From Massilia sp. NR 4-1 (GTDB lineage: Bacteria > Pseudomonadota > Gammaproteobacteria > Burkholderiales > Burkholderiaceae_D): a stretch of DNA of 24,000 nt. The stretch covers positions 3,013,297-3,037,296 of the forward strand of contig NZ_CP012201.1 of NCBI RefSeq assembly GCF_001191005.1, given 5' to 3'. Position numbers and translations under genes: made by a program. The notes below the pieces were generated by a model. That model saw only the letters and a list, made by a program, of their open reading frames with translations, was not told where the DNA came from and did not search any database. Below are positions 2,161-9,521 of the stretch, piece after piece; the stretch's first letter is position 1; every line of letters starts with the position of its first letter.

Positions 2161-2194
2161 AGAATTCTTTTGAAATCAAGTAGTTAGAAATTCG

Positions 2195-2267
2195 AAGGCT
2201 GTCAATTTTGGGGTCGGATGGGGCTGATTAAGCTTCAGAATGACAACAAAATGACAGCCTTTTTTTC
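2195..2267 (+). terminator. Possible ssrA terminator: 10-bp stem (AAGGCTGTCA / TGACAGCCTT) with an unusually long 47-nt loop, followed by a T-run
   Basis: Arms at 2195-2204 and 2252-2261 are perfectly complementary, and the T-run extends to about 2266. The long loop is atypical for an intrinsic terminator. Confidence 0.35.
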
Positions 2268-2547
2268 TTGCCGATCACCGTAGCGACGTCGTTTACATTT
2301 ATCCCCGCTGCGCGTGCTCGCAGGATGCGTCCTACTCAGATAGCGTACACGCTTCCTCGGATGGGTACACAACCCGAAGTGATCACTCCACTCACGGGCA
2401 ATAGTGATTGTCGAGTCTGGAGTAGCCGGTTATGATACGGGTGCAAACTTTTTGCTCCATTTCAATAGATACAAACAGTTTTCCAACATCTTCGAGACCT
2501 TCGGAGTTTTTGCTATTCGAGCTGGCGAAAAAGGTTACAGGTTAAAT

Positions 2548-3906
2548 ATGGTAAAAATAAATAAGAAAAATCAGAGCACTAAACCAACTTTTATCGATGT
2601 ATTTGCTGGATGTGGTGGACTGAGCCTTGGACTAATGAAGTCTGGCTGGAATGGATTATTTGCAGTTGAGCACGATGCGAATGCATTCAAGACATTGCAG
2701 CATAATCTCATCGACAAAAAAGGCCCGTATCAATTTAGCTGGCCGGACTGGCTGCCTCGAACTCCTCATAGCGCAATAGATATATTGCAAAATTACATTA
2801 AGAACTTCGAAGTCTTAGAAGATAAGGTCGATATGCTCGTTGGGGGGCCCCCATGCCAAGGTTTTTCAATGGCAGGACGGCGCGACCCGAACGATCCTCG
2901 CAATAAACTTGTAGAGGCATACTTTGGTTTGGTGAATATGGTAAAGCCACGAATCGTTCTTATCGAGAATGTAAAGGGTATAACGCTCGATTTTGACGAA
3001 AAGAAGGAAGAAGGCGAAGAGCCCGGTAAGATAAATTATGCAAAAAAAATAATAAAAGAATTATCTGAAAATTATACTGTATCCTCTAAGCTAATTGATA
3101 CGTCCCAATTTGGTGTTCCTCAAAAGCGCCATCGATTCTTTATCGTTGCGGTAAGGAAAGACGTCGCGAAGAGTTTTCACCATGATCCGATTAAGCTGAT
3201 TGAAAGTGAGCGACTCTCATTTTTGAGGTCAAAAGATATCGTCAACGTTCCGATTTCGGCAAAAAGTGCGATTTCTGATTTGACAATAGAGCGCTGTGGT
3301 AAGGCAAAAAGCCGTGACAGTGAAGGCTTTGAGGAAATTCGATACGAGGGACCGCTGACTTCATATCAAAAGTTAATGAATTCAGGGAATGTGGAAAACC
3401 CTTCAGATACTCGTTTGGCTCGGCATAAAAAAGAAATCAGGGCTCGATTCAAGAAAATCATGAAGATCTGTCAAGATAGCGGAAGGCTGAATGTCTCGCT
3501 ATCGGCGGAAGTTCGTGCAAGTTTCGGGTTAAAAAAATGCGCAATCAGAGTAATGGACCCAGATAGTCCTTCCCCGACCATTACAAGTATGCCTGATGAC
3601 TTAATTCATTTTAGCGAGGCTCGCACGCTAACGGTTCGAGAAAATGCTCGTATTCAAAGCTTTCCGGACTGGTTTGAATTTAAGGGGAAATATACATCAG
3701 GAGGAGAACGTCGCAAAAGGGAGGTACCACGATTCACTCAAGTAGCAAATGCGGTACCTCCGCTAATGGCAGAGGCTATCGGAGCTACGCTTTTGAATTA
3801 CTACTTTTCATCTAAACTGCCTTTGCAGTCAACGAAGAAAAAATCTGCTCAAATGCCTCTTGCTTCTCAAGCAAAGCTAGCCGTAAATCACGCATCTCCT
3901 CACTAG
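2548..3906 (+). CDS. dcm: DNA (cytosine-5)-methyltransferase, Dcm/type II family, 452 aa from ATG 2548
   Basis: All canonical C5-MTase motifs are present. Motif I is FIDVFAGCGGLSLG. Motif IV is GGPPCQGFS, with the catalytic Cys codon at 2854-2856. Motif VI is ENVKG and motif VIII is QKRHRFFIVA. Motif IX is TLTVRENARIQSFPD and motif X is QVANAVPP. ATG 2548 is preferred over the GTG at 2404 because conserved motif I starts about 14 aa after it and an AGG lies about 6 nt upstream. Confidence 0.9.
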   Translation: MVKINKKNQSTKPTFIDVFAGCGGLSLGLMKSGWNGLFAVEHDANAFKTLQHNLIDKKGPYQFSWPDWLPRTPHSAIDILQNYIKNFEVLEDKVDMLVGGPPCQGFSMAGRRDPNDPRNKLVEAYFGLVNMVKPRIVLIENVKGITLDFDEKKEEGEEPGKINYAKKIIKELSENYTVSSKLIDTSQFGVPQKRHRFFIVAVRKDVAKSFHHDPIKLIESERLSFLRSKDIVNVPISAKSAISDLTIERCGKAKSRDSEGFEEIRYEGPLTSYQKLMNSGNVENPSDTRLARHKKEIRARFKKIMKICQDSGRLNVSLSAEVRASFGLKKCAIRVMDPDSPSPTITSMPDDLIHFSEARTLTVRENARIQSFPDWFEFKGKYTSGGERRKREVPRFTQVANAVPPLMAEAIGATLLNYYFSSKLPLQSTKKKSAQMPLASQAKLAVNHASPH

Positions 3907-4732
3907 TAAACTCCTCTCCTTTTTTGTTAAGGAGTTTCCTAGAAAACCCTTCTATCTCTACGCGGATATGTGCCAAATCATTTCGTTTTGGCATTATTTT
4001 TTCGGCGTACTCTAGCATGACCTTGTCCTGCTCATCGTAACCACCTACCAGCCTTAATGCCTTGCGTAGTAAATGCAACCGATCCGCACTTGTGTATACC
4101 AAATGCTTTTCGAATAATTGCGAAATATGGTTAATTTTCTGAAGTTCTTCCACGTTTTCATCAAACGCGTTTTTTATTTTCGCTACCTTTTCTAAAATCT
4201 TTTTAATTACTTCTTGCTGAGTTTTTGCATCACTGTTTTCGAAGATATGTAGCAAACTATCATTTACATAGTGGTCAATATCGCTGGTTGCTCCCATGAC
4301 AAGACCTCTTGAATGATCGATGTCAAGAACCTTCTTTACCAGAGACTGGAAAACTCCGTCAGCAGTATCCGGCAAATCATCTCTGCTAGATAAATATACA
4401 CCACTCACATCTGCGGCTTTTAGATATTCACGTAAATTATTTGCTTGTGCGGAATAAAATATGACGTCTTTATATGGCAGTGTCCGGCGTACTTCTTTTA
4501 ATCCCTCGTCACCATTTGGCCCGTTGTCCAAATTGTAATCCATCAGGATAAGATCGATATGGTCGGAAAATACGTTATCAGTAATGTAATTTTTAGCCTC
4601 TTCGACTGAGATGGCAAATTGAACCTTTAGGCGAAACCCTTCTGACCGAATAAGTCGCTCTAACTTCTCCTTTTGGGCTTGCACACTCTGTTGCAAGTCC
4701 TCAACCCATAGAATGTTAAAGTCTAGTCTCAT
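3812..4732 (-). CDS. Response-regulator receiver (REC) domain fused to a C-terminal helical domain with a HEPN-like Rx4H motif (RNDLAH); no DNA-binding output recognised
   Basis: REC features: N-terminal ILWVED acidic pair (E11/D12), phospho-acceptor context LILMDYNL (D65), and VIFYSAQ (S93). The C-terminal domain has KRNDLAH (R250..H255, codons 3985-3968), the RN-x-x-A-H form typical of HEPN RNases. AGGA lies 8 nt upstream of the ATG. The ATG overlaps the upstream stop as ATGA. Confidence 0.75.
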   Translation of the reverse strand: MRLDFNILWVEDLQQSVQAQKEKLERLIRSEGFRLKVQFAISVEEAKNYITDNVFSDHIDLILMDYNLDNGPNGDEGLKEVRRTLPYKDVIFYSAQANNLREYLKAADVSGVYLSSRDDLPDTADGVFQSLVKKVLDIDHSRGLVMGATSDIDHYVNDSLLHIFENSDAKTQQEVIKKILEKVAKIKNAFDENVEELQKINHISQLFEKHLVYTSADRLHLLRKALRLVGGYDEQDKVMLEYAEKIMPKRNDLAHIRVEIEGFSRKLLNKKGEEFTSEEMRDLRLALLEKQEAFEQIFSSLTAKAV

Positions 4733-7101
4733 TTTGAAATCCTAATTAAAAAGTGTGCACCCCGCCCGTTCTCACCGCTTGAGACGTCTATAGAGCCATT
4801 CATTTCGCCAAGAACGTGCTTAACATGATACAAGCCGAGCCCTGATCCATCGGTGGTAGAAAAGCCTTTTTCAAAAACTCTATCAAGCTGTTCAATCTTG
4901 TTATTAAATCCTTTTCCATCATCAAACACTTCTATGTGCAGGCCATCTTTATTAGGGTGGCTAATTTTGAACGTCATCGTTCCAGCACGGGCTTTTTTCG
5001 CGTTTGCAACAAGATTATCTATAACAACCGAAATGTCGATAGGTTTGAATTTTTGAACAAATTGTTTCCCATCATTTTCTACTTTAATCTCCATAGGGCC
5101 ATGGAGAAAATCACGAACCACTCCCTCTATATATTGCTCAATGTAACTACCAACGTCTGCTTCAATTTTTTCCGACGCCAATCTAAAATTGGCTTTGGTG
5201 GCAAACTTGGAAACTCCCATAATGCGCTTATTTATTAGCGCAACTCGCTCAAGAGCGTTAACAACTTCTTCGGTAGAAACCGTTTCTTTCCCAGCAATTC
5301 GCACCAAGAAATTCTCTATCTGCTGATTGATATCTACAGAGTAAATTGTTACCTGATGATGAAGATTAAGAATCGTATCGGTGTCTAACGTAGAAATTGA
5401 AGCGAGAAAGAGATTACGTTTCTTTTCTTCCGCTAATTGTTCTTTTACCGTTGCTGACGCATGTTCCGCTGCACGTGCCCGCTCTAATGCCGCTTCTTTA
5501 GCAGTGCGTTCCTCATCAGCTTGACGTCTTGCAGCCTCTTCAGATCGTCGCAATTCGTCAAATTTTCGTTCTGCCGACTCAATATTCTGAAAAAGCTCGG
5601 CATCCTTAGTTTTTTCTGCAATTGACCTTAGGCTTGCCAACGAGCCTTCAAACTGCGACGACCGTTCGTCTAAAATATTGATTAATTTCTTGCTGTACTC
5701 AAGTAGTTCAATCTCGTCACTATCAACAAGTTTGGCGACTGCAGTTGCTACCCGCGCTCTACCTGGGTCCGTCAACAATCTAGATATATCGCTTGTATTC
5801 TTATCTTCCTTGTCGATGAAAGTAACGGGGACTACATAGCGCTCCAGTCGCTTCAAACAATGCTCATGAAAGCATTTCTTTAATTGAGCTACCGCTAGTG
5901 TCTCAATAAGACCAGTATCTCGGCTGGAAGACTCATGAAAATCGTCATCGGCTCCTGAAACATCAATCCGACCGATTACATCTCGCGTTCCTAAGAAACG
6001 TGCATAGCCCTGCTGCTTACGCCGATCCATTCCAAACCAATCATCGCCTTCTTCGCCAATTGGAAAGACTCGAAAGCCATTTCTAAATAGAAAAACTGCA
6101 CCGAATTGAACGGAAGGGACTCCCATGCGGCGCGAAAATGTCAGCTTTGCCGATTGATTAAGGAAGAAAATTTGACAACGGAACCCGGACCGAAAAAGTA
6201 ATGGATATTCATTGGGCTCGCGAATTCTGTAGATTAGCTCACTTCGATCAGTCAGTGAGCTTTCAATAAAGTTTCCACTTGGGTCAATTCGAACATCGAT
6301 GAAGGTAGTTTTTTCTTGCAGCGTAGAAAAGATGAAATTTCCTACGGGACCATTTGCAACCGAGTTAGGGGAAATCTCAAATTCTTTTCGTTCTGAGTTC
6401 GTGATTTCAATTTGGTCTTGACGTAACTCTGAAGGAGCGTGAACTACAATGTTGAAACCATCGGCTTCGGCTCCGAAGGGGTTTATCAATTTCGCGAGCG
6501 CAGATTTGAGCCGCAGAATTGAATCTCTATCCCATTCCCGACGAGTGTTCTCAATAGTCAGGACAGTGCCATGCGATCGTGTCGCTATGCCTTCCGGTAA
6601 TTCGAAATTGTCTAACTCTGCAGAGTAAGCAACTTCGATATTTTCGAAGCGCTCCTTATGGTCGCGATCGAAGAGATTCCAGTCGACAACCAACAAATGC
6701 ACCGGCTTTTGATCTTCAGTTTGGTGCCGGGTCTGAAGTTTGACTATTTGACCCAGACGGTCGGAGGAGAAACGACCAATTCCCTTACTGCCTGCGTAGT
6801 GGTGACGCTCCGCGATATCATCGCGAAACCCGCCCAACCTCGTCTGGCCACGCTTTGATGAGTAAGCAACAAACAACCACTTATTGCGAATATCATCGTA
6901 GGTCATTCCTATACCGTTGTCGGCCACTACAATGGTGCTATTGCCAAAGTAAAGATCGACCTGACTGGCATCGGCATCGAACGAATTTTTGACAAGCTCA
7001 AAAATTGCGACCTCATCATCCGTGATGAGATCGCTACCTAGCACGCTCTTGAGCCCACTACTTACGTCAAAGTGCAGGTCAGGGGCCTCGTCATTTGTCA
7101 T
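4729..7101 (-). CDS. 790-aa dual-GHKL protein: N-terminal MutL/MORC/Hsp90-clade ATPase, central domain, coiled coil, and C-terminal histidine-kinase catalytic module
   Basis: N-terminal Bergerat motifs are ELVKNSFDADA (E35/N39/D42), VADNGIGM (D61) and GSKGIGRF. A charged heptad-like stretch (about residues 500-565) reads ERKFDELRRSEEAARRQADEERTAKEAALERARAAE. The candidate H-box is ILNLHHQV (H581/H582, codons 5361-5356). HK N-box is VIDNLVANAKKA, G1 is VFDDGKGF and G2 is DGSGLGLY. Codon usage is AT-rich like the island. Confidence 0.8.
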   Translation of the reverse strand: MTNDEAPDLHFDVSSGLKSVLGSDLITDDEVAIFELVKNSFDADASQVDLYFGNSTIVVADNGIGMTYDDIRNKWLFVAYSSKRGQTRLGGFRDDIAERHHYAGSKGIGRFSSDRLGQIVKLQTRHQTEDQKPVHLLVVDWNLFDRDHKERFENIEVAYSAELDNFELPEGIATRSHGTVLTIENTRREWDRDSILRLKSALAKLINPFGAEADGFNIVVHAPSELRQDQIEITNSERKEFEISPNSVANGPVGNFIFSTLQEKTTFIDVRIDPSGNFIESSLTDRSELIYRIREPNEYPLLFRSGFRCQIFFLNQSAKLTFSRRMGVPSVQFGAVFLFRNGFRVFPIGEEGDDWFGMDRRKQQGYARFLGTRDVIGRIDVSGADDDFHESSSRDTGLIETLAVAQLKKCFHEHCLKRLERYVVPVTFIDKEDKNTSDISRLLTDPGRARVATAVAKLVDSDEIELLEYSKKLINILDERSSQFEGSLASLRSIAEKTKDAELFQNIESAERKFDELRRSEEAARRQADEERTAKEAALERARAAEHASATVKEQLAEEKKRNLFLASISTLDTDTILNLHHQVTIYSVDINQQIENFLVRIAGKETVSTEEVVNALERVALINKRIMGVSKFATKANFRLASEKIEADVGSYIEQYIEGVVRDFLHGPMEIKVENDGKQFVQKFKPIDISVVIDNLVANAKKARAGTMTFKISHPNKDGLHIEVFDDGKGFNNKIEQLDRVFEKGFSTTDGSGLGLYHVKHVLGEMNGSIDVSSGENGRGAHFLIRISK

Positions 7102-7150
7102 AGGATTCCAGTGCTGAAGTTGGTTACTGGTAACAATTTATCAAAGAAGC

Positions 7151-7156
7151 ATTATA
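7151..7156 (-). promoter_or_regulatory. Possible -10 (TATAAT on the minus strand) for the kinase/receiver operon
   Basis: A perfect TATAAT lies about 45 nt upstream of the ATG at 7101, but I found no good -35 at 16-18 bp spacing. Confidence 0.25.
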
Positions 7157-7183
7157 TTCCAGGTTGCAAGCAGTTGTGGCACT

Positions 7184-7584
7184 TTAAGTGATAAAGTGGT
7201 TCTCTTTTAGCAATTTTTCTTGTTGCGCAATCAATCCTTTGCTACATCCAACTAGCTCCATAATTTCGCTTCAGCTGGACACACCTGCTTTTAAATGCTT
7301 TTGAATCAAAAGATTCCGTTCATGGTTCGGCTTTCGTCCTTGATATTTTCCTGCGCTTTGTGCTTTTCGGACTCCTTGCGCAACTCGTTCCCGCCTAGTT
7401 AAGTAATCTTTTCTTGCAACAGCTGCTAGCATACCTAACATCATTCCATTCAAGGCAGTGAATACACTTGATGTAAATTCATCATGTTTGATCATCGCCC
7501 AGGACGTAGGAAGATCTAATGCTACAACTCTGATGGATTTTTCTGCCAGGTGACTTTTTAAAAGATTCCAATCGAATTCTTTAA
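7184..7584 (-). pseudogene. Serine recombinase (resolvase/invertase family) relic, C-terminal portion, with an in-frame TGA before the HTH
   Basis: The minus-strand frame reads ...KEFDWNLLKSHLAEKSIRVVALDLPTSWAMIKHDEF...MMLGMLAAVARKDYLTRRERVAQGVRKAQSAGKYQGRKP...KAGVSS. A TGA follows at 7273-7271. The same frame then continues SEIMELVGCSKGLIAQQEKLLKENHFIT to a TAA at 7186-7184, which looks like the resolvase C-terminal HTH. The 5' side is cut by the IS at about 7585. Confidence 0.7.
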
Positions 7585-8797
7585 GGAAGCGCTGATTTAA
7601 TCGTCGCCCCGTGCCTGCAACTCTGCGTCAAGCTGCCACAATGTCGGCTTACTAACTGCGAGACCAGTTCATGCAATCGAGCTTTTCCGACGCCGAGTAC
7701 GCCAGCAAGAAGAAGCCTACGCGGCGTGACCGTTTCCTGGCCGAGATCGAGGCCGCCACGCCGTGGCCGGCGCTGGTGGCGGCGATCCTGCCTTACTATC
7801 CCAAGGGCGATGGCCGTGGCCGCCCACCAATCGGCCTGGAGCGCATGCTGCGCATGTACATTGCCCAGCAGTGCTTCGGCCTTTCGGACGAGGGCGTCGA
7901 AGATGCCATCTACGACAGCCAGGCGATTCGCGGCTTTGTCGGCATCGATCTGACGCACGAATCGGCGCCTGACGCGACCACGCTGCTGAAGTTCCGGCGC
8001 TTGCTGGAGAAGAACAATTTGACCCGGCGCATCTTCAACGAAATCAACGGCCACCTGGCCAGCAAAGGCCTGACGATGCGCGAAGGCACCATCGTGGACG
8101 CCACCTTGATCGCCGCGCCGCCATCGACCAAGAACGCGATGGCGAGCGCGATCCGGAAATGCACCAATCGAAGAAAGGCAATGACTGGCACTTCGGCATG
8201 AAGGCGCACGTCGGTGTGGACGTGGCCAGTGGCCTGGTGCACAGCGTTGTGGGCACCGCTGGCAATGTGGCCGACGTGACGCAGGCGCATGCGCTGCTGC
8301 ACGGCGGCGAGGTGATCGCGATGGGCGATGCGGGCTATCAGGGCGTGGCCAAGCGGCCCGAGAATGCTGGCTCGGCCGTCGTGTGGCCCCCCCCCATGCG
8401 CCCCGGCTTGCGTAAGACGCTCAAGAAGGACAAGCTTGGCCGCGCCACCGAAAGGCTGGAACAAACTAAGGCCAGCGTGCGCGCCAAGGTCGAGCACTGC
8501 TTCCACGTTGTCAAATGCCTGTTCCGCCATCGCAAGACCCGTTATCGTGGACTGGCCAAAAATGCGGCGCAGCTGTTCTCCTTATTCGCGCTGGCCAATC
8601 TGGTGCTGGCACGCAGATTCCTCGGCAGCGCTCACACCCAAGTTGCATCCCGAGTTTGAAAAAGCGGCAAAGGCCATGTTGAAAACAGGCTTTTTCGCTC
8701 TGCAGCCAGTCATGTTTCCTGATTTTGATATCGCTGCGCCGACGTGGCTCTCACAGCGGCCCTGCTGGCGTCGGAAACTGAATTGTTCAGCGGCTCC
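7585..8797 (+). mobile_element. IS5-family insertion sequence, about 1.2 kb and GC-rich, with imperfect terminal inverted repeats
   Basis: The left end is GGAAGCGCTGATTTAATC. The reverse complement of the right end is GGAGCCGCTGAACAATTC. The flanking tetranucleotides TTAA (7581-7584) and CTAG (8798-8801) both fit the YTAR target preference of IS5-group elements but are not identical. The internal DDE transposase is IS5-like. Confidence 0.75.
7671..8659 (+). pseudogene. IS5-family DDE transposase, disrupted by a 1-nt frameshift near 8135
   Basis: Frame 1 reads ...TIVDATLIAAPPSTKN, then drifts. The next frame continues (R)DGERDPEMHQSKKGNDWHFGMKAHVGVD...GDAGYQG...RAKVEHCFHVVK...RYRGLAKN, which gives the DDE signature of the IS5 group. 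Joining the two frames needs one extra C in AAC-(C)GC-GAT at about 8135. Confidence 0.8.
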
Positions 8798-9071: not shown

Positions 9072-9521
9072 TTAATCCACCACGTTCAACTTCACCTGTG
9101 CCCCATCCGGCAAATCCTGCATCTGCCGCGCCACATCGCCCGACAGGCGGATCAGCTCATGCAAAGGCGCGCTTGCCAGATTCTCCGCCTTATACTCCCC
9201 ACCAAGCACGCCCGGGATTTTCAGGCAGTACTTGCGGCCCTCGGTCAACGGTCCGCAATGCTCGCGCGCGATCTTGGTCAAGCCGGCCATATGCCAGTCC
9301 TGCAAAAAGTCCTGATCGGCCGACAGCACGTCGAGCGCCTGGCGGTCGGACGCCACCACCGCGCAGCTGCATTCTTCCGGCATCAGCCGCCAATAGCGGC
9401 CCTGGACATCCTTGATGATCAGATTGCCGAAATCATTTTCCCCCACCACCTCCAGCGCCTGCAGTCCCGCCCAGCCCCAGCTTTCGTTCAACTCTTTGAT
9501 GATATCCATACGTCCTGCCAT
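9072..9521 (-). CDS. DUF1851-like (Tdi1 C-terminal-like) domain protein, 149 aa
   Basis: The pattern GNLIIKDVQGRYWRL ... CGPLTEGRKYCLKIPGVLGGEYKAENL...LHELIRL resembles the DUF1851 signature (GPL..dE.YGF.P...LGG....NL). Codon usage is GC-rich and host-like. The family call is from memory only. Confidence 0.5.
   Translation of the reverse strand: MAGRMDIIKELNESWGWAGLQALEVVGENDFGNLIIKDVQGRYWRLMPEECSCAVVASDRQALDVLSADQDFLQDWHMAGLTKIAREHCGPLTEGRKYCLKIPGVLGGEYKAENLASAPLHELIRLSGDVARQMQDLPDGAQVKLNVVD

Follow-up and report, generated by a model that had tools for sequence, protein, structure and literature searches.

We analysed a 24,000-nucleotide stretch of the Massilia sp. NR 4-1 genome (contig NZ_CP012201.1, positions 3,013,297 to 3,037,296; the whole stretch is called the window below), in which a gene for a 306-residue response regulator lies between the genes for a 790-residue kinase and a C5 cytosine DNA methyltransferase (Table 1). 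A first-pass annotation, made from the sequence alone, had described the regulator as a receiver domain fused to a HEPN-like domain with an Rx4H motif and had proposed it as a phosphorylation-gated RNase; it did not mention the three-gene context. The open reading frame (ORF) at 3812-4732 is real and that observation holds. Codon-by-codon translation reproduced the E11/D12 pair, D65, R250 and H255, the last two within the peptide RNDLAH; the serine that the annotation had put at residue 93 is the β4 serine S94, residue 93 being a tyrosine. The kinase gene is located upstream of the regulator gene and overlaps its start by 4 nucleotides. The methylase ORF opens at a GTG at 2404, and its likely start is the ATG at 2548, giving a protein of 452 residues. 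Methylase and regulator genes are convergent and their 3' ends overlap by 95 nucleotides in the window (3812-3906). As the two genes lie on opposite strands, a single piece of DNA codes for the C-terminal residues of each protein.

Table 1. Features of the three-gene cassette and its surroundings, with positions counted from the first nucleotide of the window.
Feature	Position	Strand	Basis
Response regulator with HEPN-like output domain, 306 aa	3812..4732	minus	ORF call, ATG start
Receiver (REC) domain, residues 1-125	4358..4732	minus	Pfam Response_reg, fold, conservation
Receiver residues E11/D12, D65, S94, Y113 and R117 (R117 in the place of the β5 Lys)	within 4358..4732	minus	
E11/D12	4697-4702	minus	codon translation
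D65, phospho-acceptor	4538-4540	minus	codon translation
S94, β4 Ser	4451-4453	minus	codon translation
R117	4382-4384	minus	codon translation
R142-G143, in the segment that connects the output domain with receiver helix 5 (motif KKVxDxxHxRG)	4304-4309	minus	
HEPN-like output domain, residues 137-306	3815..4324	minus	predicted secondary structure, weak HEPN profile matches
RNDLAH, the Rx4H motif (R250, N251, A254, H255), candidate catalytic site	3968-3985	minus	
C5 cytosine DNA methyltransferase	2548..3906	plus	Pfam DNA_methylase, 2.6e-53; PADLOC MTase_II, 3e-81
Cognate kinase, 790 aa	4729..7101	minus	Pfam, homologue alignment
MORC/MutL-type GHKL ATPase, kinase N-terminus	6619-7014	minus	HATPase_c_3, 1.7e-22
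Conserved middle domain and coiled coil, between the N-terminal GHKL and the H-box of the kinase		minus	
H-box NLHHQVT, H581/H582	5356-5361	minus	homologue alignment
Histidine-kinase ATPase domain, kinase C-terminus	4738-5043	minus	HATPase_c, 4e-22
319-aa ORF with host-like GC content	790-1749	plus	no Pfam, NCBIfam or PADLOC match
Transfer-messenger RNA gene (ssrA), tag ...DNSYALAA	1800..2160	plus	ARAGORN
Resolvase remnant, 74 aa, C-terminus of a serine resolvase	7271-7495	minus	Pfam, E=0.063
IS5-type transposase, split into two overlapping ORFs	7671-8201, 8159-8659	plus	DUF772, 2.2e-21; DDE_Tnp_1, 1.7e-24
149-aa protein with a type VI secretion system immunity Tdi1 C-terminal domain	9072-9521	minus	E=3.9e-13

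Searches with the full protein returned a family of 906 clusters at 90% identity. Among the 120 matches listed, nearly all are 300-316 residues long and four are 319-330 residues long, and the database names they carry are 'hypothetical protein' or 'CheY-like'. Residues 128-306 alone, compared with 1.84 billion representatives, gave 180 matches (clusters at 50% identity); among the 150 of these that were listed, every full-length protein is about 300 residues long with the domain at about 129-303, and the shorter ones look like fragments. As all full-length matches listed share this architecture, the output domain seems confined to fusion with this receiver. Two alignments were built, one of 103 sequences with 22-53% identity to the query and a mean column identity of 29%, and one of 101 representatives clustered at no more than 50% identity. 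Only D65, R142, G143, R250 and H255 are invariant among the 103 sequences, and D12, D60, S94, R117, K134, D137, N251 and R284 are at least 90% conserved. R142 and G143, and likewise R250 and H255, are also present in 101/101 representatives; N251 is kept in 97 of the 101, and position 254 is Ala or Gly in all of them. Rx4H spacing by itself is a common occurrence, and the first-pass annotation had named loss of R250 or H255 among homologues as an observation that would speak against its proposal; no such loss was seen. An intact phospho-pocket together with a few invariant polar residues in a drifting helical domain looks like a regulated catalytic domain.

The receiver half of the protein is strongly supported. 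When the window protein and the 103 family members were scanned against Pfam, the latter at a permissive threshold, Response_reg was the sole match of the window protein (26.5 bits, gathering cut-off 30.2), and 83 members matched the same family (PF00072); PF20274 was weakly touched by 34 members. The family profile also matched solved response regulators among the sequences of the PDB (best E=3e-6), and AlphaFold2 predicted a (βα)5 fold with five strand-helix units in residues 4-135 at a predicted local distance difference test score (pLDDT) of about 90. Among the 101 representatives, position 11 is Glu or Asp in 101, D12 is found in 96, D65 in 101, and Ser or Thr at position 94 in 100. The annotation had found no obvious β5 lysine, and indeed there is none, yet the position is filled by Arg117, directly after the predicted strand 112-116; Arg occupies it in 96 and Lys in 5 of the 101 representatives. 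The phospho-acceptor pocket, composed of E11/D12, D65, S94 and R117, is complete, and the protein is a response regulator.

For this receiver a cognate soluble kinase is present, with its H-box and HATPase_c domain intact. The N-terminal GHKL domain retains its ATP-binding residues, those sampled (E35, N39, D42, D61, G63, G65, G104, K106 and R110) being invariant in 47 homologues. In the C-terminal kinase domain of the same homologues the N-box is largely conserved, and conservation of the G2 box (GSGLGL) reaches at least 97%. The H-box NLHHQVT is also at least 97% conserved among them, with HHQ invariant in 9 aligned sequences, and it precedes the N-box by about 115 residues, the usual spacing for an H-box. 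T585, at +4 of H581, would recall the HisKA phosphatase motif. Between the two ATPase domains, residues ~218-600 (5302-6450, minus strand) contain the conserved stretches NGPVGNFIF, FRNGFRVxPxGExxDDWFGxDRRKQQG and ESSSRDxGL, and this middle domain matches no Pfam family. The 4-nucleotide overlap of kinase and regulator genes recurs in 50/53 loci. Because the H-box kinase is thus translationally coupled to the regulator, the control by Asp phosphorylation that the annotation had supposed is plausible; gating and its direction we infer. A kinase-independent 'cREC' switch was considered for the receiver in view of the 34 weak PF20274 matches and rejected, given that an H-box kinase is coupled to the regulator nearly always.

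The pair has relatives among described systems. Ambrosia, a validated five-gene anti-phage system (AbrR/A/B/C/D), combines an XRE regulator and an N6-adenine methylase with the HATPase protein AbrB, the receiver protein AbrC and the HNH nuclease AbrD, and its defence is lost when AbrB N40 or AbrC D60 is mutated (2025 preprint, bioRxiv 10.1101/2025.09.30.679545). AbrB has the same HATPase_c_3 ... HATPase_c architecture as the window kinase, to which it is 27% identical over the first 215 residues (BLASTP with the supplement sequences, E=2e-18); AbrB N40 corresponds to N39 of the window kinase and AbrC D60 to D65 of the regulator. A stretch similar to a middle-domain motif of the kinase, 'RDHFRVKPYGDPSGEGDW', is visible in AbrB. 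The window cassette differs from the five-gene Ambrosia set in having three genes, a C5 methylase and no HNH or XRE gene, with the putative nuclease carried by the regulator itself, whereas AbrC (209 residues) is without an Rx4H motif and has no detectable similarity to the output domain. Bellieny-Rabelo et al. (2021; PMC8011034), in a purely computational study, predicted 'two-component-like' pairs of Response_reg_2 and HATPase_c_3-HEF_HK-HATPase_c proteins next to C5 methylases, related them to paraMORCs and left the regulator C-terminus uncharacterised. As in the window, these pairs combine a soluble kinase carrying HATPase_c_3, an H-box and HATPase_c with a receiver protein, and C5 methylases are over-represented nearby. 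Response_reg_2 (PF19192) was weakly matched by 6 of the 103 members (best E=0.0022), and HEF_HK (PF19191) was not detected in the window kinase even at E up to 10. The window proteins thus fall outside both families, which makes them a sister lineage with a defined output domain.

Residues 130-306 of the window protein have no Pfam match of their own. As the annotation had stated, none of the classical output domains is there: winged-helix, LuxR, LytTR, GGDEF and HD families were unmatched by the window protein and by all 103 members. AlphaFold2 gave a mean pLDDT of 87 for the full-length protein and of 84 for the output domain alone, with main helices predicted at about 144-165, 169-198, 233-254 and 277-304 and a helical insert at 203-229. 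The domain had been described as all-helical; it is mostly so in the model, except for a β-hairpin (257-268) right after the motif. Receiver helix 5 extends as one long helix (120-165) into the output domain, and the pLDDT falls to 66-70 around the invariant HSRG segment (R142-G143). In the model R250..H255 lies at the end of the third main helix (233-254) and the start of the next loop.

A helical bundle with an invariant, probably exposed histidine downstream of a receiver could in principle be an HPt-like phosphotransfer or phosphatase module, in which H255 would be a phospho-histidine and the protein one step of a relay. We consider this very improbable: no Hpt family appears among the Pfam matches of the members or of subfamily consensus sequences, the motif is RNxxAH and not the HxxKG of HPt domains, and the loci checked have no conserved second receiver protein nearby. 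A DNA-binding transcription regulator, controlling the methylase or other genes, is less remote, though we still hold it to be unlikely. The predicted helices 215-229 and 233-254 followed by the hairpin 257-268 could be taken for a winged helix, the overlap of the convergent regulator and methylase genes might serve regulation, and the authors of the Ambrosia study propose transcriptional control by the kinase-regulator pair (bioRxiv 10.1101/2025.09.30.679545). Yet no helix-turn-helix family is among the matches of the 103 members; AbrC, the regulator of that pair, shares neither the output domain nor its motif; and strict conservation of one Arg and one His, in a domain that is otherwise 25% identical, is typical of a catalytic site and not of a surface that reads DNA. 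With the regulator acting on transcription, moreover, the cassette would have no effector.

Homology to HEPN domains accounts for these features best. The predicted order of helices and the placement of the motif are consistent with the HEPN four-helix up-down core, which typically has inserts between helices 2 and 3; in Csx1 a β-hairpin directly follows the motif (PMC3710099). In the Pfam scan of the members all recurrent non-receiver matches were to HEPN families (RiboL-PSP in 5 members, Apea in 5, MAE_28990 in 4 and Swt1 in 3), with Abi_2 and HEPN_RES_NTD1 matched once each; all were sub-threshold, the best E-value of an individual member being 3.2e-3. A subfamily consensus matched HEPN_RiboL-PSP at E=3.9e-4 (20.8 bits, cut-off 28.4) over 117 residues, aligning residues 20-136 with profile positions 35-162 of 191, and subfamily consensus sequences gave further matches to MAE_28990 (6.6e-3), Apea (0.028) and Swt1 (0.07). 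RNxxAH, at positions 126-132 of the consensus sequences, lies inside every one of these alignments. Additional weak matches, found with PADLOC and NCBIfam, were to Csx1, Csm6, CARF_HEPN and Cas13-ApeA. No search placed the C-terminal domain in a non-HEPN family; such a placement was what the first-pass annotation had listed as contrary to its proposal. A HEPN-like Rx4H domain is therefore the best-supported description, and the output domain is probably homologous to HEPN; both the fold and the RNase activity we infer. As the matches to every HEPN family are sub-threshold, the domain would at best found a new HEPN family and not belong to a described one. Residues 128-209 of the regulator, which make up its linker and first-helix region (4351-4106, minus strand; KKVLDIDHSRG...), also weakly match PDC-M62B, a PADLOC candidate-defence model (E=4e-4, profile positions 74-155 of 401), and another candidate defence protein may share this segment.

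The three genes travel together. Fifty genome loci, from Alpha-, Beta-, Gamma- and Deltaproteobacteria, Acidobacteriota, Bacteroidota, Chlorobiota, Verrucomicrobiota, Cyanobacteria, Fibrobacterota and other groups, all contain the kinase-regulator pair wherever the contig extends far enough. A Dcm-type methylase gene adjoins it in 52 loci; this gene is convergent in 48 of them and in the other 4 lies upstream in the same orientation. In 40 of those 48 the 3' ends of methylase and regulator genes overlap, by a median of 51 nucleotides. This overlap could couple the expression of the two genes through transcriptional interference or antisense RNA (loci L003-L054). Distant representatives, whose output domains are 22-24% identical, keep the kinase partner in each of three contexts that were checked; one of them has both Dcm and the very-short-patch repair endonuclease Vsr, one lies on a short contig with Vsr, and one has no methylase nearby. 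Vsr is found in the cassette of distant branches (loci L058, L059 and L061), and in L058 an additional 979-residue N6/N4 methylase lies upstream of the kinase gene. No other gene, a nuclease included, is conserved beside the trio in the surveyed loci. With no nuclease gene in the cassette, the output domain of the regulator is the only candidate effector, and the cassette is probably a restriction-modification-like defence under two-component control, a relative of known systems.

Several observations weigh against an RNase effector switched by phosphorylation. The HEPN profile matches all fall under curated cut-offs and are anchored on a short motif. The structure search that the annotation had proposed did not bear it out: Foldseek comparison of the output-domain model (pLDDT 84) with the PDB and BFVD returned no HEPN structure and no meaningful match. 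Sequence-profile searches of the PDB gave matches to the receiver only and no credible relative of the output domain, and a profile of 51 output domains run against 5.8 billion proteins found, among the 120 matches listed, family members only, so that no link to annotated HEPN proteins emerged. HEPN helix 2 usually carries an acidic residue, which is not apparent here, and the conserved polar residues D137, R142 and D153 lie in or before helix 1. On the signalling side, the usual β5 lysine of the receiver is replaced, albeit conservatively, by Arg, and the H-box region of the kinase matches no Pfam DHp family. Finally, the methylase partner suggests an activity directed at DNA, whereas HEPN domains are RNases.

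The last of these points leads to a different assignment, that the output domain, HEPN-like or of a new fold, is a phosphorylation-switched DNA nuclease and the cassette a true restriction-modification system in which the methylase shields host DNA. On this view the Rx4H motif would cut or bind DNA. The almost obligatory link to a C5 methylase and the presence of Vsr in distant branches agree with this, as does the use of an HNH DNA nuclease by the related Ambrosia system, and no structural match ties the output domain to RNases. The kinase N-terminus, furthermore, resembles the BbrUII/HgiDII restriction enzymes and has a PADLOC REase_II match; the NF050001 model of this type covers residues 21-221 only and scores 71.6 bits against a cut-off of 550, short of full-length membership. 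Nonetheless, no PD-(D/E)xK, HNH or GIY-YIG signature was found by Pfam searches of the window protein and the 103 members, the recurrent weak matches point to HEPN families only, and HEPN domains are known as RNases (PMC3710099). We therefore regard a DNA nuclease as unlikely, if the least unlikely of the alternatives to an RNase.

The cassette lies in a low-GC (guanine plus cytosine) island that starts directly after ssrA and has a GC content of 43% (2161-7600), compared with 63-64% in the flanks. A 14-nucleotide inverted repeat followed by a T-run (2195-2261) after ssrA resembles the terminator of the transfer-messenger RNA gene. The far edge of the island, 7271..8659, is made up of the resolvase remnant and the split IS5-type transposase, which is either a frameshifted pseudogene or a case of programmed frameshifting. 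The far side of the island showed no direct repeat of the 3' end of ssrA, so that this boundary has probably been eroded by the insertion sequence (IS) element. In other genomes the cassette is located between an integrase gene and P2-like tail genes inside a P2-like prophage, near an antirestriction gene, or directly beside tRNA genes. A tblastn search with the window protein gave no match in phage and plasmid collections, and in IMG/VR the gene is found on one contig only, the same 29,950-bp contig as locus L011. A subfamily consensus gave a single weak tblastn match among plasmids, on a Salinibaculum megaplasmid; the protein and its neighbours there have no Pfam family, and the match was a dead end. 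Just outside the island, the ORF with the Tdi1 domain adjoins a 451-residue ORF on the other strand that belongs to no family, and on the opposite flank the 319-residue ORF sits between a HAD phosphatase gene and ssrA.

Taken together, we propose, with a probability of roughly 55%, that the 306-residue protein is the phosphorylation-gated HEPN-type RNase effector of a mobile three-gene defence cassette. The MORC-like module of the kinase would monitor DNA, most simply foreign DNA without the cassette's own 5-methylcytosine mark. Such a signal would trigger autophosphorylation of the kinase at H581 of NLHHQVT and phosphotransfer to D65, and the phosphorylated receiver may then dimerise via its α4-β5-α5 face. 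The long helix-5 linker, with its invariant R142-G143, could thereby bring two Rx4H motifs into a composite site of the sort typical of HEPN dimers, which would cleave RNA independently of metal and either arrest the infected cell or destroy phage transcripts. Because H581 and T585 have the HxxxT spacing of HisKA kinases, the kinase would in the uninfected cell probably act as a phosphatase and keep the nuclease off. The detailed form of this scheme, in which the kinase reads the methylation state of DNA and His-to-Asp transfer assembles the HEPN RNase dimer, is put forward only tentatively. If it is true, DNA-based self/non-self discrimination would be uncoupled from an RNA-directed abortive-infection effector, and the regulators would form a new HEPN nuclease family as well as the first class of response regulators with an RNase output.

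A toxic effector under phosphorelay control has a precedent in Detocs, a defensive two-component system in which a phosphorelay reportedly activates, during phage infection, a toxic effector enzyme joined to a receiver domain. Detocs differs from the window cassette in that its effector is a PNP-type ATP nucleosidase, a buffering receiver protein is included, there is no methylase, and the kinase is without a MORC-like module; no Detocs model was matched in the window by PADLOC. More generally, in CheB, PleD and RpfG phosphorylation of a receiver controls the catalytic domain fused to it, either by relieving inhibition or by dimerisation. We know of no RNase output catalogued among response regulators, and none was found in the literature search. 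The toxin and abortive-infection (Abi) proteins of the HEPN superfamily (Abi2/AbiD/AbiF, RiboL-PSP, Swt1, ApeA, Csm6/Csx1 and PrrC; PMC3710099) occur in restriction-modification contexts and resemble the window protein in its defence-island setting and in the RNxxAH form of the Rx4-6H motif. In its predicted structure the motif likewise closes helix 3, helices 2 and 3 are separated by an insert, and a hairpin comes after the motif as in Csx1. None of the known HEPN families is known to be under the control of a receiver fused to it. A receiver-HEPN fusion is absent from the 2013 HEPN survey, the 2008 MORC paper and two Aravind-group papers on conflict systems, and the literature search found no paper that describes one; the survey brings up receivers solely as domains that take the place of HEPN on a single transmembrane module (PMC3710099), and in the DefensePredictor paper HATPase and REC appear only in a figure legend. 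The 'distinct regulatory solution' that the first-pass annotation had seen in the protein is less unprecedented in view of Detocs, Ambrosia and the pairs of PMC8011034.

If the output domain is a HEPN RNase, these regulators would constitute a widespread, previously unannotated class of response regulators in which a two-component switch acts on a toxic nuclease and not on transcription. For a minimal three-gene cassette related to Ambrosia and to the restriction-modification-linked MORC-like kinases, the output domain supplies a candidate effector that can be tested by mutation. A compact phosphorylation-switchable nuclease could also serve as a tool. The question of what bacterial MORC-like GHKL modules sense becomes addressable through readouts of D65 phosphotransfer and RNA cleavage.

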